From a virus: a DNA stretch of 64,000 nt. The stretch spans positions 32,001-96,000 of IMG/VR virus record IMGVR_UViG_3300045988_084534; one strand, given 5' to 3'. The notes under the pieces are model-generated. The model searched no databases and was not told the origin of the DNA. It worked only from the letters and a program-made list of their open reading frames with translations. A program made the position numbers and the translations under genes. Shown in pieces: positions 16,407 through 63,939 of this stretch (position 1 is the stretch's first letter; every line of letters starts with the position of its first letter).

Positions 16407-18084
16407 AAATCTCACTGACTTTAGTGCGCAATAATAGTAATGTTATTGTGTGTTTATTTGAATTGCTGGAAACCCCTTAGAGACATATCAACCACAACGT
16501 AGCTATGAAATATGGGCAAGCGTGATGGTTTGAAAATGATATAGATTGGGCAATCAGCAGCGAAGCTCCGAATAGGAGAACGTTCAACGACTATCCTGTT
16601 AGAGGGAGTACAACGCAAACGATTGGCGTTGGAAGCGGATAAGACCCTATTATATAGGGTGATGATATAGTCTCATCTCATATGAAAGTATGAGGAAAAT
16701 TGTTTGAGTTCACTTATAATACTATAAAAGCAAGGAGGTGGGTATGTGGACAAAAACAGACAACATTACAAGATGTCATTGCTTAAATGGTGTGAATCGA
16801 ATAATAGTAATTTGGTTTACGAATGGGATGAAGCAAATGAAATGGCTATGAACGAGATTGGGTCAAGTAGTGGAATAAAAGTGAAATGGATATGCTCTAG
16901 GTGTGGTTTTCATTTTGAGCAAAGACCTTCAGATAGGGTGAGGGGGCATGGTTGTCCAAAGTGTGCTAGAAAATCTCATTCAAGCGTCCCCGAAACGATA
17001 TGTTATTTGGCTATCAAGCAGTATTTTTCAGATGCGATACATGGATATAAAACCGATTGGCTTGGACGTAAAGAATTGGACATCTTTATCCCATCTATTA
17101 GTGTTGGCATTGAATATGATGGAAATTCTTGGCATAATAAATCCAGAAAACGAACAGATAATGACAAGACGTGGCTATGCGCCCAGCATAATATCTTGAT
17201 CTATCGTATAAGAGAAAACGGATGCGAACCAATGGACGACGAGTCAAATAATATTTATTACAAGCCAAGCAAACAATACAATGCTCTTAAGTATTCTATT
17301 ATAGATGTACTAATGAGGCTTGGACATAATAATGTTGCTTTTGATGACTGGGAGTCGCTTATTAATAAGTCTAAATGTGAATTTTCCAGTATTGAAAGAA
17401 GTAAATCTATTGGTGTAATAAATCCAGAATTTAGTGCAAAATGGGATTACGACAAAAATTATCCTTTAACGCCATATGATATATTGGCTCATTCCAATCA
17501 TAAAGTATGGTTAAGATGTGATAAAGGACATTTGTATAAAAGAGCGCCAAACTATTCAAATCAAAAAGAATGCCCCATATGTATAAATAAAATTGTGCTT
17601 GAGGGCTATAATGATTTGGCAACAATAAGACCAGATTTGGCGTTGGATTGGAATTATGATAGAAATGGCGAATTAAAGCCAACGGAAATAACGTTCGGTT
17701 CTAATCGACGTATTTGGTGGAAATGCCATGCTTGCGGAAACGAATTTCAATCATCTCCAAATGCTAGAAAAGATAATATGGGACATTGTTCAAAATGTGT
17801 GTTCACCAATGGCAATGAAACATTATCAAAAAACAAAGCGGTTAATAATAGTCTTGCTGAGTTTTATCCAGAAATCGCAAAAGAATGGGATTATAACAAT
17901 AATGAAAGAACGCCAGACAATGTTGCAAGGATGTCTGGATTGGAAGCGTGGTGGATTTGTTCAAACGGTCATTCTTGGAAGGCTAGTGTTCATAGTCGAA
18001 CGCATGATGGGAAAAAGTGTCCATATTGTAAACAAACTCAAACAATAAACTGCTAGGCGTAGTGAACCTAGTTGAAAGAAAATG
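16407..18084 (+). mobile_element. group I intron in the lysin gene carrying a Vsr-like/DUF4379-type endonuclease ORF (ends +/- ~20 nt)
   Basis: The core is near-identical to TMP intron 1: 'gaattgctggaaaccccttagag' (16460-), 'gattgggcaatcagcagc' (16544-), 'gttcaacgactatcc' (16582-), 'gatgatatagtct' (~16663). A 12-bp stem (16699-16710 with 18035-18046) closes the ORF loop. Ends in G (..GAAAAUG). P10 is CUUUA/UAAAG. Confidence 0.65.
16746..18056 (+). CDS. intron-encoded homing endonuclease, PD-(D/E)XK Vsr-like domain plus four zinc-ribbon (DUF4379-like) modules
   Basis: 436 aa. GTG start after AAGGAGGTGGG. Nuclease motif 'ELDIFIPSISVGIEYDGNSWHN'. Repeats 'W(D/N)Y..N....P..I...S...(V/I)WW.C..GH.(W/F)......R.....CP.C'. 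Confidence 0.65.
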   Translation: MDKNRQHYKMSLLKWCESNNSNLVYEWDEANEMAMNEIGSSSGIKVKWICSRCGFHFEQRPSDRVRGHGCPKCARKSHSSVPETICYLAIKQYFSDAIHGYKTDWLGRKELDIFIPSISVGIEYDGNSWHNKSRKRTDNDKTWLCAQHNILIYRIRENGCEPMDDESNNIYYKPSKQYNALKYSIIDVLMRLGHNNVAFDDWESLINKSKCEFSSIERSKSIGVINPEFSAKWDYDKNYPLTPYDILAHSNHKVWLRCDKGHLYKRAPNYSNQKECPICINKIVLEGYNDLATIRPDLALDWNYDRNGELKPTEITFGSNRRIWWKCHACGNEFQSSPNARKDNMGHCSKCVFTNGNETLSKNKAVNNSLAEFYPEIAKEWDYNNNERTPDNVARMSGLEAWWICSNGHSWKASVHSRTHDGKKCPYCKQTQTINC

Positions 18085-30784: not shown

Positions 30785-33309
30785 TTATTCACATTTTGTC
30801 CAGCCACATGACTTACAAATTTTGCAACCGCCCTCAAACATAACGGGTTCACCGCATTCAGGGCATACCTCTGTTGAAATTGTGGCTAGTGCATTGCTCA
30901 ACTTTTTAATGCTGTCTGTTGCTTTATTAGTAGCCTCTCTTAGATTCTTAGTCACATTAACCACATCATCCTCTTTATCATCTAGTTCACTCTGCATCTC
31001 ATTATACATATCTACTAGAGCATTACCAATAGCCATAGGACAACAAGACCCCTTACTGGTATCATGGTGAGTTGCCTTGCGAGTAGCATAAGATGGGCAT
31101 ACACCAGTTGAATCAAGCTGGTCTTTGATGGTCATAATATCCACACCAGCGCGGCATAGTAGACTGACCATGCGGCTTAGACCTGTCATGAAATTTGCAC
31201 AATTTCCAGTAATAAAGATTTTACCATTACGACGCAACACAAGCAAACCGCTTGGAACTGTAAAACAATAAGATTTGCCGTCGATTGGTTTATAATCTTC
31301 AATAGTTGCAGTTGATAAGCCATGTACGTTTTGGGTTGTCCAACGCACTCTATAACTATCTTGAATATTTTGTGTTCCGTTGTTCAATGAAATTGTAGCT
31401 CTAAAACCAAGCCTTGTCAATGCAAACTGGATAAAATCAGCTTCGTGCTTTTTTGACGTATAATAAGAACCAAGTCGGTTTCCTTCGCCAACAGAGCCAT
31501 CCCAATATACACACTCATCCACAATACATTTTAATTGCTCATCATTACAAGCATACCATTTTGGTGTAAATTGCTTGTCAATAAACCATTGTTTAACACT
31601 TGGAATTGGATGAATATAAAACACGGTATATTCGGTATTGTTGATGTTTTTTTCAGTCCATCCAATATCACAATTTGTTAGTAGTTGACGAATACGAATT
31701 TTCTTTCTATCTTTTTTTACGTTAATAACAATTTTATTTCCATCAAATGTACCATCCGCATAAATTGCAACAAGTAGTCTAATTATCTCATTACTAAGCG
31801 GAATACCATTTGTATTCATAGAGAAGGTGGTTGGAATATGACGATTTTTAGAACCAGCCATGAAATCTTTTACAGTAATAATTTCATGGGTTAATTTGCT
31901 TCTAATTCCAGACATATATTTTGCATAATTTTTATACAAATACATTCTATGATCTTCTGAAAGAACCATATCCAATCCAGTTGTATTGTGGAAATATTTC
32001 ATATTCTCAACATTGTCATTAACAACGTAAGAAATTGGATAGGTTAAAGAAGCCGTTCCATCTTCATTGTACTGCAACACTTGTTCATACTCATCCATAT
32101 TATATTCGCTAATTTTTTTCCACTCGATACCATTAAAATATTCAGTATCTTTGTCTACGCATCCACCAGTCGAGCCTTTATTGAAATATACCTCTTGTAG
32201 ATTGCCGTCAATGGGGTCAAAGAATGCTAGAACATGAAGTGAGCCGCATCCTGTCTGGATTTTGCGCTTTTTGCCAATCAGGTCATTGCTTGGTTCAATG
32301 ATTGAGCCGCGAGGTAGAATGGGGGATGTGGATTCAGGCTTGGTTTCATTATCTTTCTTATTGTCAGTAAGCAAGATTCCCTGACGGATTGCATTAGGTC
32401 TAAAGATTGTACATCCCTTAATGCCTAGCTTCCAGCACTGCATATAGATGTCCTTGACTTCATCAAACGATGCTTCAGTAGGCACATTGATTGTCTTGCT
32501 AACGCTCATGTCGGTATATTTGCTGATAATAGCAAGCATAGCTACATGGTCATCGACAGACATATTAAGCGCAGTTGGGAAAATATCATGCTCGTCAAAA
32601 TCAAGTTGCTCACCCTTATCCTTTAGCTTATGATAGAGATAATAAGCATAATCCATCATCTTGACGATTTTTACGTCCTTATCGTCCTGACCCCCAATTT
32701 TTACCTTGCGGTCATAGCTAAGAGAGAAGATTGGCTCAATGCCACTAGAGCAGTTGTTACCAAATACCATAGAGATCGTGCCGCACGGTGCAACCGCTTG
32801 AATCTTGGCGTTACGAATACCATATTCAGCCATCTCGGCAATGACATCATGTTCTAGCACAGATTTGACATATGTGTTATCTGCGTGTTTATCTGGCTCA
32901 CATAGAGGGAAACAGCCCTTTTCTTTAGCAAGCTGAACTGACGCATAATATTCTGCATTAGTAATCATCTGCATTAGAGATTCAACATAATCTCTTGCTT
33001 CCTGACTATCATACTTCATGCCAAGCATAGCCAGCATATCTGCTAAACCAGTAATGCCAATACCAATGGTGCGCATACTCTTCTGATAATTTTCGTAAAT
33101 CTTGTCAGGGAATTTATTTACATCAATAATATCATCAAGCATACGGACTGCAATAGAGATTGTATTTCTTAGAGCATCAGTATCAAGATGTGCTTGCTTG
33201 GTAAATGGATTCTTTACAAAATTGTGTAGGAACAATGAGCCAAGATTACAAGCACCGCCATATTGCGATGGGTCTGTTGCATTGATTGTTCCTGCTAGAT
33301 ATTCAGCGC
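30785..33309 (-). CDS. nrdJ: class II (B12-dependent) ribonucleotide reductase, exon 2 (contains an intein)
   Basis: Begins (C)AEYLAGTINATDPSQYGGACNLGSLFLHNF. Contains 'MRTIGIGITGLADML' and 'GCTIFR'. C-terminal zinc ribbon 'CPECGEPVMFEGGCKICKSCGW'. An upstream in-frame TGA at 33310-33312 shows the ORF cannot simply continue. Confidence 0.8.
31202..32161 (-). mobile_element. LAGLIDADG intein (320 aa) within nrdJ
   Basis: The extein context 'FNKGSTGG|C...ITGN|CANFMTGLSRMVSLL' restores the conserved RNR 'GGCANF' block. The intein has an N-terminal Cys, block B 'LSEDHR', two LAGLIDADG motifs ('LLVAIYADGTF', 'VYWDGSVGEG') and a C-terminal 'GN' followed by +1 Cys. Confidence 0.8.
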
Positions 33310-33479
33310 CTCACACAATGCGTATCAAATACAGTTCGCATCGTGCGCTAGACTATCGCATCCCCTTGGGGTCTCCTCGCTTAGTCGTTCAGGCTGGCAT
33401 TACCCTTGCCCCCTGTAGCTGTGTATTCAGCGTCCAAGTCAATCAGAGGAGATTTTACATCCGCACGTTTATATGGCTA
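33310..33479 (-). mobile_element. compact ORF-less group I intron in nrdJ
   Basis: 170 nt. 5' exon ..CCGU, intron UAGCC...GUGUGAG, 3' exon GCGCUG. P1 is CCGU/GCGG. P3 is UCUCCUC/GAGGAGA. P7 is GACUA/UAGUC, flanking the P8 hairpin CCCC-AA-GGGG. P9 is AUGCG/CGCAU. Splicing recreates 'CSNP-C-AEY'. Confidence 0.75.
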
Positions 33480-34302
33480 ACGGATTACTACAAACAATTC
33501 TTTCTACATACCATGCAGGATTGCGATTATTGGCATTATCCTCATAGAATACGCCCGGTTCACCATTATCATATGCCATCTGCATGATTTCGTTCCAAAT
33601 ATCACGAGCTGGCACTAGCTTGGTAAATTGCTTATCCCACTTATCTGGCGGCAGTTTATTGCCCTTCTCGTCATAGATAGGCCAATGTAGTTTAACTTGA
33701 CCATTCTCAATGACAAGATTCATAAAAGCATCATCTACAACAACAGATAGGTTGAAATGATTTAGCCGTCCTTCTGTAGCTGATTTAGCATGAATAAATT
33801 CAAGAATGTCAGGATGATATACACTGAGCATACCCATGTTTGCACCGCGCCTTGAACCTTGCTGCACAGTAGCCGTCTGAGCATTAAATACATCCATGAA
33901 ACTAACTGGACCAGATGCAATAGCATCATTACGGGTTCTATAACCATTAGGCGCTAGATTGCTAAAAGCATAACCAATTCCGCCACCAGCTTTATGTGTC
34001 ATAGCGCCTAGCTTAACCGCATTAAAAATCTGCTCCATGCTATTACCAATAATAGGTGCTACAAAGCAGTTATTGAGAGTTAGCTTTTCGCCAATACCGG
34101 CATTGCTCATGGTGCGTCCAGCAGGGAAGAAATAGCCTTCTTTCATAATACTGAAGAATCTATCTGCCCATTTAGGCGCGTTCCAATTTCCTTCGGCGGA
34201 TGCTACAAAATCAGCTACACGCCATAGCTGGTTATCATATGACTCACCGTCCTTTTGGTATCTATCTTTCCAGATAGATTCATATACCTCATTTACAAAC
34301 AA
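33480..34302 (-). CDS. nrdJ: class II ribonucleotide reductase, exon 1
   Basis: TTG start 8 nt after GGAGG. Contains 'NNCFVAPI', 'GGGIGYAFSNL' and 'SRRGANMGML', and ends '...ERIVCSNP' plus the first base of the Cys codon. Read-through gives a stop after 3 codons. Confidence 0.8.
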
Positions 34303-35644: not shown

Positions 35645-36457
35645 TTAATCATCATCTCCTTTAGACCATCTGTTGTTATATTTAGTAATTTGATAATTTA
35701 CTTGATTTTCAATATTTTTATTTTCGCAATCAATATCTTCTGGATAATTTAAGTAGGCAAATTCCCCATGCTCGTGATATGCAGCAATATCGTAGGCGTG
35801 TGCAGCTTCCTCTGGCGTTTCCCATCTACCAAGATAAACATTTTTCCCTTTTATCCTACAAAATGCAGAATACTTTTCGTCTGTTTTAGATACTCCCTTT
35901 AAGCCGATTTTATTTCTTTTATTTGGAGCAATATTTATATTGTTTTGTCGCGGAGTGCATTTCCTCATATTTTCTCTGCGATTATCGCCTTTATTTAGAT
36001 TTCTATGATCGTAATACGCCCCAAATAAAAACCTATGTAATCGCATACGCATTCGTTTGCCATCCGACAAATACCAATATCCAGAATCTTTTTCTTTTCC
36101 AATATGTGCAAATTTTAATCTATCAAGATTATCCGCATCAACAATAGTGTAATCGGACATATCATCGAGATAAATTTTTACATAATCTCCTTCTATTTCA
36201 TAATGATTAAAAGGTTTCTTTCTTGCTTTAGAAATATATTCGCTTCTGGCGCATCCGCATGATTTGCAACTTCCACTTCTTAATAATGCAAGCGTAAGAG
36301 TCCTAATTGTTTTATTTTCGCAATCGCATTGACAAATAACTCTGCGTTGGTAGCATTTCTTATTCCTTGTTTTAGAAAAATATTCTTTTGGCTCTGTTTC
36401 GTCTATGACTGTCCAGTGTGAATATTTATTGCCTATGACATCAAGTTTTTCAGCCAA
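35645..36457 (-). CDS. free-standing HNH homing endonuclease with AP2-type DNA-binding domain
   Basis: 270 aa. TTG start after AAGGAGA. 'MRLHRFLFGAYYDHRNLNKGDNRRENMRKCTPRQNN' is HNH-like. 'GLKGVSKTDEKYSAFCRIKGKNVYLGRWETPEEAAHAYDIAAYHEHGEFAYLNYP' is a typical AP2 domain. It overlaps the helicase 3' end by 25 nt. Confidence 0.7.
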   Translation of the reverse strand: MAEKLDVIGNKYSHWTVIDETEPKEYFSKTRNKKCYQRRVICQCDCENKTIRTLTLALLRSGSCKSCGCARSEYISKARKKPFNHYEIEGDYVKIYLDDMSDYTIVDADNLDRLKFAHIGKEKDSGYWYLSDGKRMRMRLHRFLFGAYYDHRNLNKGDNRRENMRKCTPRQNNINIAPNKRNKIGLKGVSKTDEKYSAFCRIKGKNVYLGRWETPEEAAHAYDIAAYHEHGEFAYLNYPEDIDCENKNIENQVNYQITKYNNRWSKGDDD

Positions 36458-38581: not shown

Positions 38582-39277
38582 TTATCCCTTATATTTGAAC
38601 AATTTTTCTACTTTCTTTGGTTGATTGGATTTATTGTAGTCAAGTGTTCTCGTTAATTCTTGCGACCAAATACATTCAAAATCATCTGGCGAAGATTCCT
38701 CGCTGATATATACATTACATCTCTTAGATAGCTGACACATATAATCCCAAAATTCATTCGTGTCAAATTGCCCAACTGTATATCCTGTCGTATTAGCATA
38801 AGGCGGATCACAATATACAACTGCGCCATCTGGAATTTCTACGTCATGGTAGTCAAGGCAAGTAAATGTAGCAGATTGTACTCCGGGTAAATCTTTAAGC
38901 AAACTGCGTTCTGCTCTTGCACAATAATTATCACCTCTCTTATTGCTTGCCAGACCGCCCCACCATTTGCCGCCAAATGAGCAACCAAAGCCAACAAATC
39001 CAGTCAATGCAGGATTTTCGTCCATATTAGCTTTAACACGATAATCTTCTTCTTTAGTTACAACATCAGGCGGCATCCAACCATTTTGTAATGCTTGCCA
39101 CATAGCAATAAGATATGGATGTTTGTCATTGAGAATTTTAACATCTGCTTGCACTTTTGATTCAATAGCGCATGAACCACAGAACAGACTTACAAACGAT
39201 GTGTTTTTACCGATAGCTGAATTTAATACCTCTGCAATTTGTTTAGAAATGCGGCTTTTGCCACCCATATATCGCAT
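38582..39277 (-). CDS. dam: DNA adenine methyltransferase (Dam family)
   Basis: 231 aa. 'MRYMGGKSR', SAM-binding motif 'FCGSCAIE' and catalytic 'YCDPPYANTTGY'. Confidence 0.8.
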   Translation of the reverse strand: MRYMGGKSRISKQIAEVLNSAIGKNTSFVSLFCGSCAIESKVQADVKILNDKHPYLIAMWQALQNGWMPPDVVTKEEDYRVKANMDENPALTGFVGFGCSFGGKWWGGLASNKRGDNYCARAERSLLKDLPGVQSATFTCLDYHDVEIPDGAVVYCDPPYANTTGYTVGQFDTNEFWDYMCQLSKRCNVYISEESSPDDFECIWSQELTRTLDYNKSNQPKKVEKLFKYKG

Positions 39278-39537
39278 TATTTATCCTCCTCAATTAGTAA
39301 CATATCCCACTCATCAATAATCATCTTCATCAATGCAGTTGCACCCCAAGCTGGTTCAAATCCGTGGTTATATGCGTAATAGATGTGTGCCACATTGATA
39401 AATGTAATCCAACGATACTTGCTTGCTGCCACCTTAAATTCGTTATTACCTGTTATGCTTACATTTGCTTTTAATAAGCTATTGCAGATATGACATACAG
39501 CATCAAGCCATGCTTCATAGGTCAATACGTCTTGCAT
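39277..39537 (-). CDS. hypothetical protein
   Basis: 86-aa ORF abutting its neighbours. Confidence 0.5.
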   Translation of the reverse strand: MQDVLTYEAWLDAVCHICNSLLKANVSITGNNEFKVAASKYRWITFINVAHIYYAYNHGFEPAWGATALMKMIIDEWDMLLIEEDK

Positions 39538-39786
39538 TTATGATTCCCTCCAAGCGTCATAGATTTCAATGGCTGGTTCATAGCCTTCAGTGCTGATAAT
39601 AAGCTCCCGATGAAGGTCGAGACTCAAATTGACAAGTTGCTTCAAAGAATTGATATGAATATACGTTCTGATATTTTTGCACTTATCCTGCTTTTCATCC
39701 AATTCATATTCATTGAGCACGGGATAATTCTTTCTAAGGTCATTAAGCGTGGGGTAATAGTCAGTTTGATGAATCCAGATTTTCAT
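39538..39786 (-). CDS. hypothetical protein
   Basis: 82 aa. CAGGAGG RBS, downstream of the promoter at 39820-39848. Confidence 0.5.
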   Translation of the reverse strand: MKIWIHQTDYYPTLNDLRKNYPVLNEYELDEKQDKCKNIRTYIHINSLKQLVNLSLDLHRELIISTEGYEPAIEIYDAWRES

Positions 39787-39819: not shown

Positions 39820-39848
39820 AGTATATCATAGAATCAGGAGGTTGTCAA
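39820..39848 (-). promoter_or_regulatory. sigmaA-type promoter
   Basis: Minus strand: TTGACA-17 nt-(TGa)TATACT. Confidence 0.6.
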
Positions 39849-39861
39849 TACCCTATTTTAA

Positions 39862-40116
39862 TTATTTTTCAATCATTTTCTTTAATTCTGCAAATAGCTC
39901 TCTACCGCAAATAGGGCAAGTAGAATCAATGTCAACTACATATTTTTCATCTACCATTAAGCCGCAATTTGGGCATTTAATAGGCGCATATTTTAGTGGA
40001 TGTTCAGTCCGTTTGCGGCGATTTCTTTCTGCTCTGCTCAATTTCTTCCTTCTCCTTATATTTTGCTCTGTATTCATTTCGCTTGGTTTCATCACCATCA
40101 TTCCACCATTTGACAT
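39862..40116 (-). CDS. basic zinc-ribbon protein overlapping the 3' end of the PP-loop gene
   Basis: 84 aa (start uncertain, internal Met candidates exist). 'RRRKKLSRAERNRRKR' plus 'CPNCG...CPICG'. It overlaps 40004-40116 in another frame. Confidence 0.4.
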   Translation of the reverse strand: MSNGGMMVMKPSEMNTEQNIRRRKKLSRAERNRRKRTEHPLKYAPIKCPNCGLMVDEKYVVDIDSTCPICGRELFAELKKMIEK

Positions 40117-41101
40117 TGATATAATCTAATACCTTAGCCATACCAAGTCCCTTATCAGGAATCCACATGCCAGTTTGTTCATCATATTTGCCACCGCGCA
40201 TACAATAATCATAAAGTTGTGGGTGGGTTTGAGCAAGAATTTGAAATTTATTAGGATGCTCAAGATGACAGCCATAACCGCAGAACACGCACCCAGTTCG
40301 CTTCTGTTTGGTTGTTGTATACACGCCACCCTCACATACAATATCCCCGTACACGGCGGAACAATATGGCACATTGAACTTTAGCAAATATTTAAGTACG
40401 TCGGATTTAGACCAAAAGGAGAGTGGCTTTGAAGAAGGTCTATCACCATCAAAAGCATTACATCCTGTCCGCAACCAAGCAGTCTTTCTTGTGGTTGACT
40501 CTTGAGCCATCGTTCCAATAAAAGGATGGTAGTTAGTCTGTTTCTCATAAATTTTTGCCGGGTGCTTTTTCATAATGTAACAACACTGGTTTGCTAATGG
40601 TATGTCACCATTTGTTAGATATTTCCATTTAATATTTCCCTGTCGAAAAGGATTTATCGTTCCGTCTGGATTAACGCCGTTCATTTTGTCGATACCGTAT
40701 TGACTGCCGTTTTTTGCTGAATATACAGCATAAGACAACTCCTTACTAATCAATGGGTATCCATACCGTGTGATAACTTCGGGAAATGTAATATGCTCAT
40801 ACTGCCGAGATTTACGGTTATATACAGACGGCTTGAGGACGATAACATTTGACTTACTCATAATGAACTCACGCAGTTCAGGATATTCCAAACCAGTATC
40901 GCAATATACGTCCACCACATCAGGATATATGCGATGCACAAGATGGCTCAGTACGGTGCTATCTACACCACCACTATTACTGATATACACCTTCCCATCC
41001 CAATGTTCATACCATTCAATAATTCTAGCCGTACTAATTTGGATTTTTTCTTCAAGAGATTTAGATTGCAGCTCTTTCAAATCTTCCTTTGTATGGTTCA
41101 T
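40004..41101 (-). CDS. PAPS-reductase-family PP-loop ATP pyrophosphatase (DndC-like)
   Basis: 365 aa. PP-loop 'ISNSGGVDSTVLSHL' and a Cys cluster 'TGCVFCGYGCHLE'. The start overlaps the stop of the upstream desulfurase gene by 4 nt. Confidence 0.7.
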   Translation of the reverse strand: MNHTKEDLKELQSKSLEEKIQISTARIIEWYEHWDGKVYISNSGGVDSTVLSHLVHRIYPDVVDVYCDTGLEYPELREFIMSKSNVIVLKPSVYNRKSRQYEHITFPEVITRYGYPLISKELSYAVYSAKNGSQYGIDKMNGVNPDGTINPFRQGNIKWKYLTNGDIPLANQCCYIMKKHPAKIYEKQTNYHPFIGTMAQESTTRKTAWLRTGCNAFDGDRPSSKPLSFWSKSDVLKYLLKFNVPYCSAVYGDIVCEGGVYTTTKQKRTGCVFCGYGCHLEHPNKFQILAQTHPQLYDYCMRGGKYDEQTGMWIPDKGLGMAKVLDYINVKWWNDGDETKRNEYRAKYKEKEEIEQSRKKSPQTD

Positions 41102-42195
41102 CTTACGAATTTCTCCTTATACTCAACCACAGCATTTATAAATGCATCAATATCACGTTCTGTTGTTTCATCACCAAATGACACTCTAACAACACGGCTT
41201 GCCTCATCATTGGTTAAGCCGCAAGCATTGAGCACTCTAAAATCATGTAGACTAGAACAAGCAGAGCCGCCAATTCCAATATATATCTGCTTAGATGCTA
41301 GATACTGTTGCAAGCTATCAGCGTTAATATCATCAAATATAATGGCATTGATAGCAAATACGCTATGTGCTGGTTCATTTGCATCTGACTTATCTGGTTT
41401 TAACACATTATTGATAACAGCTCCATGAATATCATTATCAGTGAATTTATCAAGCATATATCGGTATAGCTCATATGCTCTTGCCTCATGTTTCTCTGCG
41501 TTCTTACAAGTATCCTCAGTAGCATCAGCCATAGCCATAGCACCAGCTAGATTAGGTGTGCCATGCAGTTTGAAATCGCCTAGCCATTTGTCTAGTCTAT
41601 CTGAAATCCAAGCACATCCAATACCAAGCTCCGTTGCAATCTTATGCCCAGAAAAACAATAAAAATCGCACCAATCATCAATGTTTGGTTCAATGGGTGT
41701 GTGTCCAACTTGAGCCGTTCCATCACAGATATAAAACCCATTATGCTTATGAACAAGCTCTCCAATCTGCTTAGTTGGAAAAATTTCACCTGTGATATTT
41801 TGAACGGCTTGCCATAATACAAATAGCGTATCAAATCTGCTTGAAAATTCATCATGAATAGACAACGACTTGTCCAATAAGCCTACATTATTAACCACGC
41901 CTGTTTCATATTTAAAGAAGCTATCATGTTCATAAGCAGAGCAAATGACACTATAAAAAGAAGCAGTCTGGCTTCTAATAGCATTCATCAAATTCTCAAT
42001 CAACTGGCTACTTGTGCCGCCAAATACAACCTTACCACTCTTTGCGCCAATAGCTGCCTTTACTCTATTTGCACAATCATCAAGCAATTTCTGTTCCTTA
42101 TAGGCATAGTTGGCATTAGGATTAAGAAATTGACCATATTTACTACATGGATATTTGATGAATGGATTAGTTGCGGCGTAATCAAGATAAATCAA
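41098..42195 (-). CDS. cysteine desulfurase (NifS/IscS/DndA-type class V aminotransferase)
   Basis: 365 aa. PLP-lysine motif 'FSGHKI' and active-site Cys loop 'GIGGSACSS'. Confidence 0.75.
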   Translation of the reverse strand: MIYLDYAATNPFIKYPCSKYGQFLNPNANYAYKEQKLLDDCANRVKAAIGAKSGKVVFGGTSSQLIENLMNAIRSQTASFYSVICSAYEHDSFFKYETGVVNNVGLLDKSLSIHDEFSSRFDTLFVLWQAVQNITGEIFPTKQIGELVHKHNGFYICDGTAQVGHTPIEPNIDDWCDFYCFSGHKIATELGIGCAWISDRLDKWLGDFKLHGTPNLAGAMAMADATEDTCKNAEKHEARAYELYRYMLDKFTDNDIHGAVINNVLKPDKSDANEPAHSVFAINAIIFDDINADSLQQYLASKQIYIGIGGSACSSLHDFRVLNACGLTNDEASRVVRVSFGDETTERDIDAFINAVVEYKEKFVR

Positions 42196-43820
42196 TTAAA
42201 ATATTCACTCCAATCATATTCATTTTCTTTTGGTTTATCAATAATTTCATATCTCTCAATAATGGCTTGAGGCTTAATCTGTCCATTATATTCATTCAAT
42301 CCAAGCGATACTACTACTTCTATGGATTTGCCTTGAGCAGATTCAAATTGACTTGCTTCTTCATTACTAACAAAGAATTTGATGAACTCAATGTCGTCCT
42401 GAACTAGCTTAACGGTAGTTGAACGATTACGATATACATAAATCTGCGGAGATGTTAAAGTACAATGGAATAACGGCTTGCTTACATCTTTAGCCCATAG
42501 GATATTATTTTCTACACACACATTTGCAAGATTGCGTGTGATATTATTAGGCTCGATTTGAGTCGCTACTTCAATATCTGGCTCTACGTCCAAATCAAGT
42601 CCATCTAAGAATCGCGCAAATCGCTTGAGGTTTGATTTCTTGACGGTGATACCAGCTGCGGCATCATGCCCTTGACATTTAGCTAATCCTGATTCATTGA
42701 TAATCTCAAGTAAATCAATGGGGCTACGCATCGAGCCAGACCATGTTGTGCTATTTAGCTCTCTCAGCAGGAATGTAGGCTTATTATATTTACCACAGAA
42801 TTTATTGGCTACAAGCCCTAAATAGGATTTATTCTCAGGTTCGCCAAAGCCTATAATAACCTTATGAGATGTGTCAAGCCCATCTGACAGCTTATCTACG
42901 ACCTTCTTGACTTGATAATCCTGCTTGGACTTGACGGCTTTCATAGCCTTTATAGCGGCTTCTGGCTCAATTTTGCCAATCAGCGTATCAAAGAATAACC
43001 GCTTAGTAGACTGGTCATCGCTACGAGCCAGCGCATTAGCAAGAGGCGCAATGCCAAATGCCACACCCTCTGGATTAACGCCACGATTGCAACAATGCTC
43101 TAAGCAGTATTTAATAAATGGATTGGTTGGATTCGTCAAGCCGTCATATACATATTTGCGGTTCTCAAGTGAACGTAAGCTGCAAATATCAGATATTAGA
43201 CTAACTGCCACTAGGTCTTTGAAAGATTGATTTGAGCCAAGCGCACAAGCAAATTTTTCTACAACGCCTGTACCACTAATATCTATATTACAAGTATATG
43301 TGACCTTAACACCATTATAGATGCGTTCAACTAGCTCAAGTTGGTCATCTGGCATTGGTGGAATAATAACACTATTATATGGATTGACTACAACGGCGTA
43401 TTTATTTTCCCTTTTTGCAACAAATTCAATGATATGGTGGTCTAAGATAATAACCTTGATACCATGTTCATATAGTTCTCTACAAGCATCAACCTCATTC
43501 GACCCAGCATCAGGGATAATAAGCGTCTTTACATTTGCGGCAATAATATCAGATAATAGGTCACTACAACCATGCTGTTTGCCGGTGTGAAAAAACATAA
43601 TCGGCTCGATGCTTGGATGATATTCTTTACATAGCATGTAGGCAATAGCAGCCGAACAAGCCCCATCGAGGTCGGAATCAACAACAATGCCAATATTACC
43701 AGTAATATGATTAAACATATCAACAGCTACATCCATATTCTTATACATATCAGGCGATTGATATTCAATACTATCTGGATTTAGATATGCGTCAACATCA
43801 GTTAATTGGCAAGCGGCCAA
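42192..43820 (-). CDS. DHH-family phosphoesterase, RecJ-like exonuclease
   Basis: 542 aa. 'VVDSDLDGACSAA' (DHH motif I/II region), 'PDAGSN' and 'ILDHHI'. TTG start 5 nt after AAGGGA. Confidence 0.65.
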   Translation of the reverse strand: MAACQLTDVDAYLNPDSIEYQSPDMYKNMDVAVDMFNHITGNIGIVVDSDLDGACSAAIAYMLCKEYHPSIEPIMFFHTGKQHGCSDLLSDIIAANVKTLIIPDAGSNEVDACRELYEHGIKVIILDHHIIEFVAKRENKYAVVVNPYNSVIIPPMPDDQLELVERIYNGVKVTYTCNIDISGTGVVEKFACALGSNQSFKDLVAVSLISDICSLRSLENRKYVYDGLTNPTNPFIKYCLEHCCNRGVNPEGVAFGIAPLANALARSDDQSTKRLFFDTLIGKIEPEAAIKAMKAVKSKQDYQVKKVVDKLSDGLDTSHKVIIGFGEPENKSYLGLVANKFCGKYNKPTFLLRELNSTTWSGSMRSPIDLLEIINESGLAKCQGHDAAAGITVKKSNLKRFARFLDGLDLDVEPDIEVATQIEPNNITRNLANVCVENNILWAKDVSKPLFHCTLTSPQIYVYRNRSTTVKLVQDDIEFIKFFVSNEEASQFESAQGKSIEVVVSLGLNEYNGQIKPQAIIERYEIIDKPKENEYDWSEYFN

Positions 43821-44747: not shown

Positions 44748-45362
44748 TCAACCTCCTCGATTTAACATTGCTTTTTCTTTTGCGCTCAATCGCCATGTTG
44801 GTGTATATTCAGTGCAAAGATGCGTTCCCTTGATTTTCTTAACGTATATTAACTTAATCTCTGTATCTAACCTCTTTGATTTATTTTGCATACCATTATG
44901 TGTCTTTGTACTACCCTTTGTTTGTCCTACATATTCCCAATTATCAGCTTTATACATACATCCTTTTCTTGTTTCGTTCTCAATGACAAATGTTTCAAAT
45001 CCATGAACACGCACATGATACTGCGCTTCCCAATCTGCGGCGATTTGTTTGCGCCACATAGCTAAAATTTGCGTACCAAGATTAGGCAAGTTCTTTTCCA
45101 ACCGAAATACAGTATTGTTAATAATTGAGTTAAGCGCGACCCTCTTATTTTCTTTTGTCAAGCCGAAATAATCATCTCTGGCTTTTACAGCATATACAGC
45201 AGATGCACCAGAAATAATCCCAACTGTCTCGCCATCCAATTTTATAAGATAATGAATTTGCTGACCAAATGTGCCATGATTCGGTATATAATGTCTATCT
45301 CTAATTTCTTGATATTCTGGATTACTACGTTTACATCTTATCAGCTCTACATTATATTTCAT
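44748..45362 (-). CDS. DUF4338 (Druantia DruA-like domain) protein
   Basis: 204 aa. 'RHYIP..G..GQQIHYLIKLDGETVGIIS....Y.VKARDDYFG', 'NNTVFRLEKNLPNLGTQIL', 'ETFV' and 'GCMYKADNWEYVGQTKG' match my recollection of the DUF4338 consensus (HYLG...RD..iGW...NsRFLi...NLaS..L...ETFVd...GtcYkAaNW..vG.T.G). Confidence 0.5.
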   Translation of the reverse strand: MKYNVELIRCKRSNPEYQEIRDRHYIPNHGTFGQQIHYLIKLDGETVGIISGASAVYAVKARDDYFGLTKENKRVALNSIINNTVFRLEKNLPNLGTQILAMWRKQIAADWEAQYHVRVHGFETFVIENETRKGCMYKADNWEYVGQTKGSTKTHNGMQNKSKRLDTEIKLIYVKKIKGTHLCTEYTPTWRLSAKEKAMLNRGG

Positions 45363-53062: not shown

Positions 53063-53263
53063 TTAATCCTCCTCTAATTTTACACAATATTCTGATTCAT
53101 AAAATATACAATCTTCACAATTAAATGTATTGTAGCAACACTCTTTGCAATTCTTTGGCACATCATATCCCATATCACTATACCAATCATATTGACTATC
53201 AAGCGCAATCGGGCAATGCCCGGTCACACATTCATTTGCACAGAATCCTTTACATTTCTTCAT
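53063..53263 (-). CDS. Cys-rich small protein
   Basis: 66 aa with 11 Cys. Confidence 0.45.
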   Translation of the reverse strand: MKKCKGFCANECVTGHCPIALDSQYDWYSDMGYDVPKNCKECCYNTFNCEDCIFYESEYCVKLEED

Positions 53264-54711
53264 GCTTCTTCCACACTTTCATCTCCTGATACGTTTCAGA
53301 TAATGTCACCCATTCGCCATTTTCGTCTTTTTTCATTTTGTTTTTCTCTTGCAATACTACCCTTGCTACATCACCCTTTTGTAATTGATGGTTCGTCCAG
53401 AATTTCTTACTAGCTCTATATGTGCGTTCTGCCCCATAACAAATATTGTATAGTGTGCAATAAACCGTACCGTATCCTGTTGTCTTGACATCTAGCACTA
53501 ACCAGTCATTAGAGTCTGAATTGGGGTCACTGCAATCTACATATCCTAATAGCTCAATCTGCCATTTCAGCTTATCAGCAATAGTTGTCTTAGGCATTTT
53601 CATTGAGCGCAGGATTGATAAGATGATGCCGCGATTATCAAGCTGACTAGCTGTTTTCTCTGTTAGCTTACCAGTATACGGCGTAAGCATATCTACATTA
53701 TAACCCATTTTAGCCCATTTGTCAAGTTTAATTGTCTTACATTTTGAAAAATTTTTATATATATCAATGCCAATTAGCAATGCTTTAGCAGAACCATAGC
53801 AATCAAGATAGCCCAACTTAATCAATTTATCAAGTTGCGAATAACCGCATTTTAGATTGGGCAAATCATCAAGTAAATCGAGGAATGATGGATATGGCTT
53901 TTCTTTACCAATCAATTCTATCTCATTCTTGATTTCGTTATCTACACCCTTGATTTCATTCTTAACCTTAGATTGACCTCTGCCTGTTAAGAAATCGTTA
54001 AGACGCTTATTGGCTTCATCAATATAATATTGCTTATCAAGATAATCTGGTACTTTTACGCCTATGACGTTCTCGTTATAGATAAAGCATCTATCAGCAG
54101 TTCCAGCCATCTTTTCAGGATTGCCACCATCTTTTACCTTGAATACACCAGCATCCGATTCTCTTGTAGATGCAAATACGCGTAATACGCGCTCTCTTAA
54201 AACCGTGTCGCCGTGCATAGAATGGACATATGAACCGCCTATTTTGACAATCTTCTGAAATTCAATCAGGTCATTACAGTTGTTGATTGTATCTTCAATG
54301 GGTGTACCTGAGATGAAATAAGAATTGAGGGCTTTGTTAAGAATAGGCAGGTCATAATCAACCTTGCTCAATTTCTTTACATACGCGCCTTTGCTTTTCG
54401 GACCATCCTCTTCAACTAAGATATAGTTATTTACATCCTTTTGCCAGATAGCTGAAGCATAATCAAATTCAAGAGATAGCCGCACCCTCTTTTCCCAATC
54501 GTGCATGATTTGCTCAACAATCGGTTCATTTGCTTCATCCTCAAAATAGACATATACACCATCTGTGTTAGACTGAATCAATTTACAGTATGGCTCAATT
54601 TTCTCAATCAAGTCAAGCAACAATAGCTGACCTGTTACACAGACACACCGGCACATTCTTGGATCGTATAGTGGATTGTGTTCATCACCAGATGCCCCGT
54701 AAGTCGAATTT
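53250..54711 (-). CDS. family B DNA polymerase, exon 2
   Basis: Begins (L)NSTYGASGDEHNPLYD, completing motif B 'K...NS.YG'. Contains 'IQSNTDGVYV' (motif C-like). An upstream in-frame TAA lies 2 codons before the junction. Confidence 0.8.
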
Positions 54712-54817: not shown

Positions 54818-55321
54818 TTACACTTTATTCTTATAGTAATCGGCGCATTTTCTTTGGGTTTTATTTTTCTGTTGCTCTTGAATGGTTATCCACCTGCAAT
54901 TATCAGGTTCATAATTTCCATCATTGTTTATTCTATCTATGGTTAATCCTTCACGATAACCAGATATTCTTGACCACTCGTAGAAATTTTCAAATTTATA
55001 CCATTCTTTACAAATTGAAATTCCTCTACCGCCATATCTTTGATAATGTTTGTCATTTGGATTATTTACTCTATTTTTCATAGATGCCCAAACATGATAT
55101 AGCTTGGTTTTAGATTGATTATGAGTAATAATGGCGTGATCAAATTGCAAGCAACCGCAACTTTTAACAGTTCCATTTTTAAGACAATCTGATCTAACTT
55201 TACATTTATTACCACATTCGCATACACAGTTCCAGTAACTATGCTTTTTATCCATATGCGAAAAATCTTGTACTGTCAATCTTCCAAAAACCTGTCCAGA
55301 AATATCAATTCGTTTCCCCAA
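54818..55321 (-). CDS. intron-encoded HNH homing endonuclease
   Basis: 167 aa. 'YHVWASMKNRVNNPNDKHYQRYGGRGISICKEW' and 'GLTIDRINNDGNYEPDNCRWIT' are typical of phage HNH homing endonucleases. TTG start. Confidence 0.7.
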   Translation of the reverse strand: MGKRIDISGQVFGRLTVQDFSHMDKKHSYWNCVCECGNKCKVRSDCLKNGTVKSCGCLQFDHAIITHNQSKTKLYHVWASMKNRVNNPNDKHYQRYGGRGISICKEWYKFENFYEWSRISGYREGLTIDRINNDGNYEPDNCRWITIQEQQKNKTQRKCADYYKNKV

Positions 55322-55430: not shown

Positions 55431-55490
55431 TACTTTTAAGCACACCTTTGGCAAAGTTCAATGAATTTTTTAATTGACCCCAATTCGTTA

Positions 55491-56464
55491 AGGACAATTT
55501 TATACGGCTTCTGCATTGGATTCTTTTCTTTCTTTAGCTTTAGGCGCGTATCTCTAATCTGCCTATACAAATCAGGGTCTTTAACATTACGACTGAGCAA
55601 TCCATACTCAATCATAATGGATGGGTATAGAGATGCCACGTCAGCACATAGAATCTTGCCTTTGTATTGGAAATTATCGATGCACCCATGTATGCCGCCC
55701 CAACCAATGACATGTGGAATACCGGCTATTGTGGTATATAACGATTTATCTACTCTATGATTCTTTGGGTCTTGAAACCATTCTAGCACATATCTATATT
55801 TATCCAGAATCAATGTATCAGGATAAATAATGTCAAATTCATCATCGTGCTTTTGCTTGACTGCACCTAGAATTTTAGCGACAAGCTGCGCCTTTGTTCT
55901 ATTGAAATCCTCAAGCGGTAAATTGAACGCCTCAATCAATGATGCTTGGCTATCAAATTCCTCATGCTTTGCGTCGAACACCTCAATGGTCTGCTCAACA
56001 TCATGGGTACAGTAATATATTGTCTGCTCAAGTTCATCTCTAGTCAACGGATGGTCAATAGTAAAATCAATATCAGACTCTTTGATTTGCTGACCCATAA
56101 AACCCTCAAATTGCTTAAGGCTATGGAATTTATCACTAATGTCAAAATTAAGCAAAGGATATTGCTCTTTTTGTTCCTTGGTTAAAATTTGATGCTCTTT
56201 CAATCCTTTGTTAATTAGAGCATCGTTCACTTCATATGCGTTTTTGCCACACAATAGTGATTTAAGCAACGGCGCATCATAATTTCTTGAATTATAGCCA
56301 ACCCATATATAGCCTAGCTTATTACATTTTTCATATACTTGCCGCAATCGGTCTACATCATTATGTATGATACATTTACGCTTTGAGGTGTAGTCGATTA
56401 GCACAACTAACCAATCGTATCTAAACACCTCAAAGTCATAGAACATTAGTTTATAGTTCATCAC
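55491..56464 (-). CDS. family B DNA polymerase, exon 1
   Basis: Exo motifs 'FYDFEVF', 'GYNSRNYDAPLL' and 'YCTHDVEQT'. Pol motif A 'LCADVASLYPSIM'. Ends '...PYKIV(L)' within motif B. Confidence 0.8.
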
Positions 56465-61751: not shown

Positions 61752-62588
61752 TTAAAAATTAACAACGCTCATTGCATTTACTGCTCTCTGTTCAGTTCTC
61801 TTAACGTACCTAGATGTGATCTGGATTCCAGAATGTCCCATTGCCTTACTAATGACCTCAATAGGCACATCAGCTTCAGACATCATAGTAGCAAATGTAC
61901 GGCGCATCGTATGATTACTAACATGTAATTCCTCCCAATTCTCAATACCAGCTTTTCTAGCACATACCTTGAGCATTGCACTGGTATTCTTACCATCCAT
62001 TTTATTGCCACGATTACCAACGAACAAATATTCACAGCCATCCTTGCGCTCATTGGTAATATAGCTATCAATCAGCTTAATCGTTTCATCAGCCAGACCA
62101 ACTAGTCTATCTTTATCGCCCTTACCACGGATGACCAGTACATTATTACTACGGCTTTCATACTGTTCAAGCGTGATATTAGCAAGCTCATGGATACGCA
62201 AGCCGGTCTGAGCAAGCATCATGATAATCGCCTTATTGCGCTCATTGGTCGCAGCATATATCATCGACCTTACCTGTTCACCATTAAGAGCCGACTGTTC
62301 ACGATTCTTAATCTGCGGCGCTTCAAGCATCTCAGCCGGATTGCGACTAATGAACTCGTTCCTATAAAGGAATTTGAAATATTCACGAACCGCAGATGTT
62401 CTCTGAGCAACAGATGCAGAGCTAAGATTGCTCATGCTGGACTGCCACAATTCAAGGTCAATCGGCTTGATTTCGGCTTCAGGCTTATTGACATAATCCA
62501 AGCAATTCTCAATCGCCTTGGTGTATTCATGAATAGTACCTTCACTACGGTGCTTTGCTCTCAAACTCATAACAAACAGTTCATTCAT
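61752..62588 (-). CDS. tyrosine recombinase (XerC/D-phage integrase family)
   Basis: The ATG at 62588 lies 7 nt after GAAGGAG. The ORF-track start lies upstream of the predicted TSS. Catalytic residues are in 'TGLRIHELANI', 'HTMRRTFAT' and 'GHSGIQITSRYV'. Confidence 0.8.
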   Translation of the reverse strand: MNELFVMSLRAKHRSEGTIHEYTKAIENCLDYVNKPEAEIKPIDLELWQSSMSNLSSASVAQRTSAVREYFKFLYRNEFISRNPAEMLEAPQIKNREQSALNGEQVRSMIYAATNERNKAIIMMLAQTGLRIHELANITLEQYESRSNNVLVIRGKGDKDRLVGLADETIKLIDSYITNERKDGCEYLFVGNRGNKMDGKNTSAMLKVCARKAGIENWEELHVSNHTMRRTFATMMSEADVPIEVISKAMGHSGIQITSRYVKRTEQRAVNAMSVVNF

Positions 62589-62617
62589 ATCATTCAGCTC
62601 CTTCAGTTGATGGTTTA

Positions 62618-62646
62618 AGTATAACACCATAGTGAAGATTTGTCAA
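62618..62646 (-). promoter_or_regulatory. sigmaA-type promoter of the recombinase gene
   Basis: Minus strand: TTGACA-17 nt-(TGt)TATACT. Confidence 0.6.
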
Positions 62647-63855: not shown

Positions 63856-63939
63856 TGGTGCGGGATAGGGAACTCGAATCCCTACGCCTTGCGGCAACAG
63901 ATTTTAAGTCTATCGTGGCTGCCATTACACCAATCCCGC
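63856..63939 (-). tRNA. tRNA-Leu (anticodon UAA), type II with long variable arm, CCA encoded
   Basis: Hand-folded. Acceptor GCGGGAT/ATCCCGC. Anticodon arm ATAGA-CTTAAAA-TCTGT (anticodon TAA). Variable arm GCCGCAAGGC. T arm AGGGA-TTCGAGT-TCCCT. Discriminator A plus CCA. Confidence 0.8.

Follow-up and report, generated by a model that had tools for sequence, protein, structure and literature searches.

A cysteine desulfurase gene and a PP-loop ATP pyrophosphatase gene recur side by side in uncultured 70–100 kb phages and may form a facultative sulfur relay

We analyzed a 64,000-nucleotide (nt) stretch of the IMG/VR record IMGVR_UViG_3300045988_084534, hereafter the window, which belongs to an uncultured phage of about 100 kb (public contig about 101 kb). 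Its replication module contains an overlapping string of four open reading frames (ORFs) on the minus strand, in the order RecJ-like exonuclease, cysteine desulfurase, PP-loop protein and zinc ribbon. The adjacency of the desulfurase and PP-loop genes recurs in related phages and is more than chance. We tentatively propose, with somewhat less than even confidence, that the two enzymes form a facultative sulfur relay, in which the desulfurase would feed an iron-sulfur (Fe-S) PP-loop thiolase whose substrate is most likely a nucleic acid, with phage DNA favored. The first-pass annotation of this DNA had noticed the pair and read it as a candidate sulfur-insertion module; we confirmed the observation and found partial support for the interpretation. 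The two genes and their junction are as follows.

41098..42195, minus strand: pyridoxal phosphate-dependent cysteine desulfurase, group-I (IscS/NifS-like), 365 amino acids (aa), TTG start, Aminotran_5
40004..41101, minus strand: PP-loop ATP pyrophosphatase of the PAPS-reductase superfamily (phrog_424; PAPS, 3′-phosphoadenosine-5′-phosphosulfate), 365 aa, PF01507
41098..41101, minus strand: ATGA stop/start overlap from the desulfurase to the PP-loop gene, read from the sequence, with AAGGAGA 10 nt upstream

The 4-nt overlap described earlier was read directly as ATGA. Through this overlap and the ribosome-binding site, the two genes are predicted to be translationally coupled.

The desulfurase matched Pfam Aminotran_5 (PF00266) at 2e-27 over residues 2–352 of 365, corresponding to profile positions 1–371 of 371. 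In an alignment with E. coli IscS (1P3W), the motifs EH, N, D..Q, SGHK, SAC and R.S fell on H104, N155, D180/Q183, K206, C328 and R354. The full-domain match and the aligned IscS residues bear out the first-pass description of a NifS/IscS/DndA-type enzyme with an SGHK site and an active-site cysteine loop. These catalytic residues were invariant in all 15 phage homologues compared, and the enzyme looks catalytically intact. The 15 homologues, which came from related phage contigs, were 31–84% identical and had clade-specific motifs common to all.

The best matches of the desulfurase in the PADLOC defence library were SspA (3e-30) and DndA (1e-29). It had no equivalog-level match to IscS, NifS, SufS, DndA or SspA in NCBIfam, where the best scores were 52–82 bits against cutoffs of 304–643, and its identity to desulfurases of GenBank phages and the PDB was about 24–27%. 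Judged by these scores and motifs, the phage enzymes are a separate, very divergent, phage-only clade, and apparently an old, fast-evolving and functional group-I lineage. No description of such a desulfurase was found in the literature that could be searched. That the PP-loop gene captured host desulfurases independently was rejected, because the adjacent desulfurases all carry the clade-specific motifs and fall far short of the cellular families in score. In two related phages, the desulfurase gene appears in two pieces, at loci L200 (4091–4327 and 5001–5867) and L206 (3868–4104 and 5001–5807), with an HNH-like ORF between the pieces in L206; an intron or homing element may lie inside the gene.

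The PP-loop protein matched PF01507 (PAPS_reduct) at 2.6e-15, carries the motif SGGVDS, and gave a full-length profile match to phrog_424 (1.4e-42, residues 8–313). Members of phrog_424 in GenBank phages were 35–45% identical to it over more than 90% of the length. Conservation was assessed in 155 non-redundant relatives (33–70% identity). The dyad C173-C174 was kept in 99–100%, C214 in 97% and C271-x-x-C274 in 98%, with C300 kept in 82% and C278 in only 49%. SGGxDS was present in 153 of 156 family members, and the C-terminal catalytic motif ECG[LIV]H in none of the 156. The SGGVDS motif and the superfamily assigned in the first pass thus stand; the CxxCxxxC cluster assigned with them loses its third cysteine (C278), and the conserved set is C173-C174, C214 and C271-x-x-C274. 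The protein looks catalytically intact.

The cysteine pattern bears on a possible cluster. CC...CxxC is the cluster motif of adenosine-5′-phosphosulfate (APS) reductases, in which the cluster donates no sulfur. DndC holds a 4Fe-4S cluster on three cysteines and has a distinct sulfur-accepting dyad (PMC10853773). The phage protein, with a dyad and at least three other conserved cysteines, matches this description, which we counted for a sulfur relay. An Fe-S cluster is likely, since the dyad and the cluster-type cysteines resemble those of DndC (PMC10853773) and the CC...CxxC of APS reductases. We describe the protein as a putative [4Fe-4S] sulfurtransferase.

An AlphaFold2 model of the PP-loop protein, based on 27 homologues, had a predicted local distance difference test score of 89. 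Its best Foldseek matches were CysH/APS reductases (E 3e-8, template modelling (TM) score of about 0.6 normalized to the target), which covered about 220 of 365 residues; about 140 residues lie beyond CysH, and the TM score normalized to the query was 0.39. The matches to TtuA/NcsA (E 4e-4 to 1e-3, TM about 0.3) and to LarE were much weaker than those to CysH.

Membership in known thiolation families was examined and rejected. DndC gave no match at E ≤ 0.01 in PADLOC or NCBIfam. BrxP (5.8e-8) and SspD (1.3e-7) matched in PADLOC over only 53–64 residues around the PP-loop, the best being BrxP at residues 25–77. The protein was thus not assigned to DndC, SspD or BrxP by their models, and the PP-loop motif and, as in DndC, the dyad and cluster cysteines are shared as a sequence pattern only. 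TtcA, TtuA and NcsA were dismissed, as NCBIfam gave no match and the fold matches were well below the CysH type. Sequence and fold searches of the PDB matched no DndC, SspD or BrxP structure and returned only generic CysH/APS-reductase, FAD-synthase, CysD, TtuA and LarE entries. A BFVD search gave nothing further, and a plasmid search gave only weak 'PAPS reductase family' matches and reached no DndC sequence. The DndA+DndC or IscS+TtcA/ThiI-like logic suggested in the first pass therefore holds as an analogy of logic, and not as orthology to DndC, SspD, BrxP or TtcA/TtuA.

At locus L017 (6001–6948), the PP-loop gene lacks its first ~36 residues, which form conserved N-terminal helices. It may be a decaying copy, as its nearest relatives by backbone no longer have the gene at all.

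To collect related loci, IMG/VR was sampled with each protein as the query, contigs from ENA and Logan were added, and the loci were scored by tblastn and hidden Markov models. The occurrence of the two genes was as follows.

IMG/VR, 34 unique contigs of the 70–100 kb phage group: both genes in 11, PP-loop gene only in 6, desulfurase gene only in 17
Window plus ENA/Logan contigs: both genes in 4 (window, L183, L184 and L187), PP-loop gene only in 0, desulfurase gene only in 1

In all 15 contigs with both genes, the two were neighbors, in three arrangements. Most commonly, the desulfurase preceded the PP-loop gene, overlapping it by 4 nt or lying at most 14 nt away. The order was reversed in two contigs (PP-loop, then desulfurase), and a gap of about 0.9 kb separated the genes in one. 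Since the adjacency recurs in 15 related contigs and in three arrangements, we regard the pairing as more than chance. The RecJ gene leads directly into the PP-loop gene in the six PP-loop-only contigs. In desulfurase-only contigs, the next gene encodes the zinc ribbon, an HNH endonuclease, a primase or the DNA polymerase III alpha subunit; the IMG/VR contigs of this type include IMGVR_UViG_3300045988_070622, and the single desulfurase-only ENA contig (ERZ19289580 NODE_211, 95,554 bp) was found in 8 samples. The pairing is facultative, which makes the desulfurase a resident replication-module gene with an independent life. A GTDB scan found no prophage of this phage clade and gave no direct host assignment; the homologues it returned had at most 48% identity and came mostly from Clostridia.

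The histories of the two genes were compared. Pairwise identities of the PP-loop proteins and of the desulfurases were uncorrelated (Spearman 0.09, p 0.39). The PP-loop proteins of L005 and L018 are 90% identical and their desulfurases 40%; between these 13 kb loci, nucleotide similarity is confined to the PP-loop ORF (88% over 1026 nt). L009 and L023 behave in the same way, with 76% DNA identity over the PP-loop ORF only, and L016 and L020 show the converse, with similar backbones and a diverged PP-loop gene. Because the identities are uncorrelated and the similarity is limited to the PP-loop ORF, the adjacency was re-created on different backbones. By these comparisons, the PP-loop gene forms a cassette of its own, exchanged horizontally, that docks beside a resident desulfurase gene. 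The phages between which it moved have unrelated desulfurase alleles, and in every case it came to adjoin the desulfurase, which argues for a link as sulfur donor and acceptor. This re-formed adjacency is the strongest evidence here for a functional link over inherited synteny.

We also examined the PP-loop family outside the clade, at 156 loci (76 from IMG/VR and 80 from GTDB) with 30–56% identity in the PP-loop protein. Some DNA methylase gene lay within 3 kb at 52 of the 156 loci. Methylase density was 8–12 per 100 kb within 2 kb of the PP-loop gene and 2–3 at 4–6 kb, a roughly four-fold drop. Fusions of ParB_N with an N6/N4-methylase lay within 3 kb at 28 loci and were directly adjacent at 15, and small terminase or portal genes lay within 3 kb at 12. 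A ParB-family gene beside a PAPS-reductase-family gene echoes the DndB–DndC arrangement (PMC10853773), and we counted the methylase enrichment in favor of the proposed relay. No PP-loop–methylase fusion was found among 190 family ORFs. Stand-alone homologues were present in Vibrio phages (about 32% identity). Desulfurase genes occurred within 6 kb at only 4 of the 156 loci, as ordinary NifS-like genes 4–5 kb away.

The window was searched for further partners with Pfam, PHROGs and PADLOC, and 40 further ORFs were scanned with Pfam and PHROGs. As the first pass had stated, no DndB, DndD, DndE, DndFGH or other partner was found: DndB/ParB, DndD-like, DndE, DndFGH, rhodanese, TusA and radical-SAM proteins were all absent from the window, as were a second desulfurase, a second PP-loop gene and a small ORF ending in GG (ThiS/MoaD-like). 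The only ATPases in the window are RecD2-like, DnaB and AAA_24, and the zinc ribbon is unrelated to DndE.

From the gene anatomy, the intact catalytic motifs, the recurrent and independently re-formed adjacency and the family placement, which are established here, we infer a transfer of sulfur between the two proteins, an Fe-S cluster, a substrate and a biological role along the following lines. The IscS/NifS-type desulfurase would strip cysteine of its sulfur and carry it as a persulfide on the flexible SAC loop. The PP-loop protein would use ATP to adenylate a substrate oxygen, and the AMP-activated oxygen would then be exchanged for sulfur, delivered through the conserved cysteine dyad, a [4Fe-4S] cluster on the C...CxxC cysteines, or both. 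The desulfurase may both donate sulfur and build the cluster, as DndA does for DndC in the account of You et al. 2007 given in PMC12914056. The substrate would most likely be a nucleic acid, with phage DNA or its precursors favored and the sulfur serving as an anti-restriction mark. The desulfurase would be a long-time resident of the phage group beside which the PP-loop cassette docks, and a host desulfurase presumably substitutes where the phage enzyme is missing. DndA is often absent, with IscS in its place (PMC12914056, PMC10853773), and this replaceability parallels the PP-loop-only phages.

Several observations weigh against a sulfur relay directed at DNA. The desulfurase is mostly found without a PP-loop gene within 5 kb (17 of the 28 desulfurase-bearing IMG/VR contigs and the 95.5 kb ENA contig), and it therefore has some role without this partner. 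Conversely, the six PP-loop-only contigs of the clade have no phage desulfurase, and outside the clade not one of the 156 loci had an adjacent desulfurase. In L004 and L006, the slot next to the desulfurase is taken by HNH homing-endonuclease genes, and it may be a recombination hot spot. The PP-loop protein has no DndC model match, and its BrxP and SspD matches are confined to about 60 N-terminal residues. Neither a linked P-loop ATPase (DndD/SspC/BrxC) nor a recognition subunit (DndE/SspB) was found among the scanned window ORFs. In Bacteroides dorei, no phosphorothioate was obtained with a PAPS-reductase gene alone (PMC12914056). A phage fusion of a PAPS domain with Dam, from Vibrio podoviruses, counters Dnd genetically and provides the only experimental phenotype of a phage PAPS-domain protein (bioRxiv 10.1101/2021.05.05.442762), which counts for the relay; against it, the fusion was not retrieved as a family homologue when the phage collection was searched with the Vibrio phage homologue as the query.

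The desulfurase could instead act independently, in Fe-S or sulfur supply or as a replication auxiliary, and only mature the cluster of a PP-loop protein whose reaction inserts no sulfur (amidation, another adenylation or redox chemistry). We consider this unlikely, though it accounts for the many relatives in which the desulfurase stands without the PP-loop gene, near primase, DNA polymerase III alpha or PhoH-like genes; another sulfur acceptor is not obvious. The APS reductase 2GOY, whose CC...CxxC cluster is of the kind that donates no sulfur, is among the best fold matches, and the DndA role in building the DndC cluster, cited above, would fit as well. The repeated docking of the PP-loop cassette beside the desulfurase speaks against this explanation, and so does the typical link of Fe-S clusters with thiolation in PP-loop enzymes such as TtuA, TtcA, NcsA and DndC, some of which are among the weaker fold matches.

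Within the sulfur relay, a narrower version has the phage alone producing a sulfur modification of DNA (phosphorothioate or thio-base) with only the desulfurase and the Fe-S PP-loop enzyme, the zinc ribbon perhaps guiding them, and with no partner of the DndD/E, SspB/C or BrxC type. This version is doubtful, and we would not count on it.

That the pair acts as a minimal Dnd/Ssp-like system of the phage and makes a phosphorothioate in the DNA backbone, mimicking host self-marking and so escaping DndFGH/SspE-type restriction, is less likely still. The combination of a desulfurase with a PAPS-reductase-family protein is that of DndA/DndC, SspA/SspD and BREX type 4 (PMC12914056, PMC12839542), SspA and DndA head the PADLOC matches of the desulfurase, the dyad and cluster cysteines are DndC-like (PMC10853773), and the phage PAPS-domain protein acting against Dnd offers a precedent (bioRxiv 10.1101/2021.05.05.442762). 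All characterized phosphorothioation systems, however, also depend on a P-loop ATPase and on a subunit for DNA recognition (PMC12914056, PMC12707154), and no DndD/SspC/BrxC-type ATPase, DndE/SspB or DndB was found in the window; the missing DndC match and the marginal, N-terminal BrxP and SspD matches count against it too. As the ATPase and recognition partners were not found in the window, we do not favor phosphorothioation over other thiolations.

We give little credence to the idea that the pair works like IscS with ThiI, TtcA or MnmA and thiolates tRNA or another RNA, which would adjust translation in infected cells. Firmicutes have gene pairs of a desulfurase and a thiolase dedicated to tRNA, such as NifZ–ThiI and YrvO–MnmA of Bacillus. 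The nearest cultured relatives and the prophage-like homologues are found in Clostridia, and the window encodes a tRNA-Leu(TAA). The PP-loop protein is nevertheless of the PAPS-reductase family and not of TtcA, TtuA, ThiI or MnmA, as the NCBIfam and Foldseek results given above indicate, and the family's neighbors are DNA methylases, ParB domains and packaging genes.

It is similarly improbable that the adjacency has no functional meaning, the slot beside the desulfurase being a recombination or homing hot spot for unrelated accessory genes. The HNH genes found in that slot in two relatives, the richness of the phage in homing endonucleases and split genes, and the occurrence of all four presence/absence combinations among close relatives would agree with such a hot spot. 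Nevertheless, the PP-loop gene occurs on either side of the desulfurase, the adjacency is kept despite differing flanks (zinc ribbon, primase or DNA polymerase downstream), the junctions usually overlap or are at most 14 nt apart, and the only cargo seen in the slot is the PP-loop gene or an HNH gene.

A CysH-type PAPS/APS reductase acting as an auxiliary metabolic gene in assimilatory sulfate reduction, as the public annotation 'PAPS reductase/FAD synthetase', the PHROG label (auxiliary metabolic gene) and the best fold matches would have it, is very improbable and was rejected, given NCBIfam scores of 22–41 bits against cutoffs of 154–254, the lack of ECG[LIV]H, the near-universal SGGxDS, in place of which CysH has SSFG in the alignment, and the ~140 residues outside CysH coverage.

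The proposed sulfur relay was compared with known systems. Like DndA+DndC and SspA+SspD, the phage pair combines a NifS/IscS-type desulfurase gene with a gene for a PAPS-reductase-superfamily PP-loop protein, and it shares with DndA+DndC a canonical PP-loop, probable Fe-S cysteines, a cysteine dyad and a desulfurase that is dispensable where another can substitute. Unlike those systems, its proteins are non-orthologous (no DndC match and a marginal SspD match), it has no DndD/DndE, SspB/SspC, DndB or restriction partner, and it is phage-borne, lies in a replication module and has a PP-loop gene that is a mobile cassette. BREX type 4 likewise has a desulfurase alongside a PAPS-reductase-domain protein that diverged from DndC, and BrxP is the best PADLOC match (residues 25–77). 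BrxP, however, is a protein of about 780 aa with DUF4007 and extra domains, and its partners BrxC, BrxZ and BrxL (PMC12839542, PMC12914056) are absent here.

In the Vibrio crassostreae podovirus p0018, a phage PAPS-superfamily domain is also linked to a DNA adenine methylase, which recalls the Dam gene three genes downstream in the window; in p0018 the two are one PAPS–Dam fusion protein, there is no desulfurase, and the protein was not recovered as a homologue. The phrog_424 genes of Clostridium phages phiCP34O and Clo-PEP-1, Ruminococcus Heliusvirales and Enterobacter phage Tyrion are of the same family with the same conserved motifs, whereas in siphophages and prophages such genes are flanked by terminase, portal and ParB-methylase genes, and a desulfurase is lacking. 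The proposed chemistry would resemble that of IscS with TtcA, TtuA or NcsA, of NifZ–ThiI and of YrvO–MnmA in using a persulfide donor, PP-loop adenylation and an Fe-S-assisted exchange of oxygen for sulfur. In Firmicutes, the desulfurase gene likewise adjoins that of its thiolase. All these tRNA thiolases differ in belonging to another PP-loop subfamily, and the gene context of the phage pair relates to DNA and not to tRNA. CysH/APS reductases share the fold core, are the best structural matches and, in the APS reductases, have the CC...CxxC spacing; the phage protein differs in its SGGxDS motif, its lack of an ECGLH tail and its ~140 extra residues.

A literature search found nothing specific on phage desulfurase/PAPS-reductase pairs, including by way of Flandersviridae. 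The first-pass statement that the two-gene form is undescribed thus holds for the pair itself and needs qualification for its parts, as phrog_424 genes are common and a PAPS–Dam fusion acting against Dnd is known (bioRxiv 10.1101/2021.05.05.442762). Phage 'PAPS reductase/cysH' genes of the phrog_424 type are not sulfate-assimilation genes and should not be so counted in virome surveys. In an abundant group of 70–100 kb phages, the replication module stably includes the gene for the divergent phage-only desulfurase. If DNA is thiolated, sulfur would join the list of phage-made DNA modifications, as the first virus-encoded pathway of this kind and by a minimal two-protein route, and phosphorothioation-like chemistry would proceed in the absence of the ATPase and DNA-scanning partners that are considered indispensable. 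This would also bear on anti-restriction in gut phages; dnd or ssp genes occur in 6.3% of gut microbiome genomes (PMC12914056). The mobility of the PP-loop cassette is a natural experiment, in which variants with both genes, the PP-loop gene only or the desulfurase gene only serve as ready-made controls.

The other features of the gene string and its 3′ flank are as follows.

42192..43820, minus strand: RecJ-like single-stranded DNA exonuclease with DHH, DHHA1 and RecJ_OB (phrog_2484, 3.7e-95), first gene of the string
42192..42195, minus strand: TTGA stop/start overlap from the RecJ-like to the desulfurase gene, read from the sequence
39862..40041, minus strand: basic zinc ribbon with two CxxC, isoelectric point 9.0, weak zinc-ribbon Pfam matches
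39820..39848, minus strand: sigma-70-like promoter match, TTGACA-17-TATACT with TG, the best of the region, as a consensus match only

The placement of the pair between the RecJ-like gene upstream and the Dam and RecD2-like genes downstream, given in the first pass, agreed with the domain matches. The RecJ-like gene is probably context, outside the sulfur chemistry. Among cultured phages there is no close relative; through RecJ, the nearest is Enterocloster phage PMBT24 (30% identity), which has the RecJ homologue and lacks both the desulfurase and PP-loop genes. A megablast search of the region against the phage collection gave no match.

As first described, a basic zinc-ribbon ORF lies within the 3′ end of the PP-loop gene; its extent was revised. 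The longest ORF begins at 40116. The most likely start is the TTG at 40041, giving a 59-aa product, because it is preceded by the ribosome-binding site AAGGAGAAGGAAG and the genes of relatives encode 59–60 aa, with an ATG start in L004. From this start, the zinc-ribbon gene overlaps the PP-loop gene by 38 nt, compared with 113 nt for the longest ORF. In relatives, the zinc ribbon is 88–92% conserved and comes after the PP-loop gene or after the desulfurase gene; it is a stand-alone gene in L004, L183 and L185. A programmed frameshift joining it to the PP-loop protein was dismissed, because the zinc-ribbon gene is equipped with a ribosome-binding site and a TTG start of its own and stands alone in relatives. 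The zinc ribbon could be a nucleic-acid-binding partner.

The promoter-like site directly follows the zinc-ribbon stop codon; the total number of such sites was not above that in a shuffled control. Its position (39848–39820) suggests that the Dam and RecD2-like genes may form the next transcription unit. Dam (MethyltransfD12) and the RecD2-like helicase gene lie further downstream. Two small conserved ORFs of 82 and 86 aa lie between the zinc ribbon and Dam (window 39277–39786, minus strand). Both are 70–95% identical in relatives, and neither has a Pfam match.

At least four free-standing HNH/GIY-YIG homing-endonuclease genes are present in the window, at 2079–2987, 4273–5208 and 16746–18056 (plus strand) and at 35645–36457 (minus strand). 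Relatives of the last type fill the PP-loop slot in L004 and L006. The large subunit of ribonucleotide reductase is divided between two ORFs (30785–33235 and 33469–34302, minus strand), and its 816-aa part has an inserted segment at residues 357–682 with a PhoH-like PHROG match, which suggests insertion of an intein, intron or homing element. A DNA polymerase (phrog_1252) is also divided between two ORFs (53250–54656 and 55436–56464, minus strand), with a 167-aa ORF at 54818–55321 between them, probably another intervening element.

A 204-aa protein encoded at 44748–45362 (minus strand) matched Pfam DruA of the Druantia defence system at 2.4e-21, which is unusual in a lytic-type replication module. 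The gene is present in some relatives (L014, 98% identity; L187) and absent from others. The tRNA-Leu(TAA) gene at 63856–63939 (minus strand) lies near a tyrosine-recombinase/integrase-like gene at 61752–62630 (minus strand; phrog_1, 3.9e-50), and the phage could be temperate, or the recombinase could serve it in some other way.

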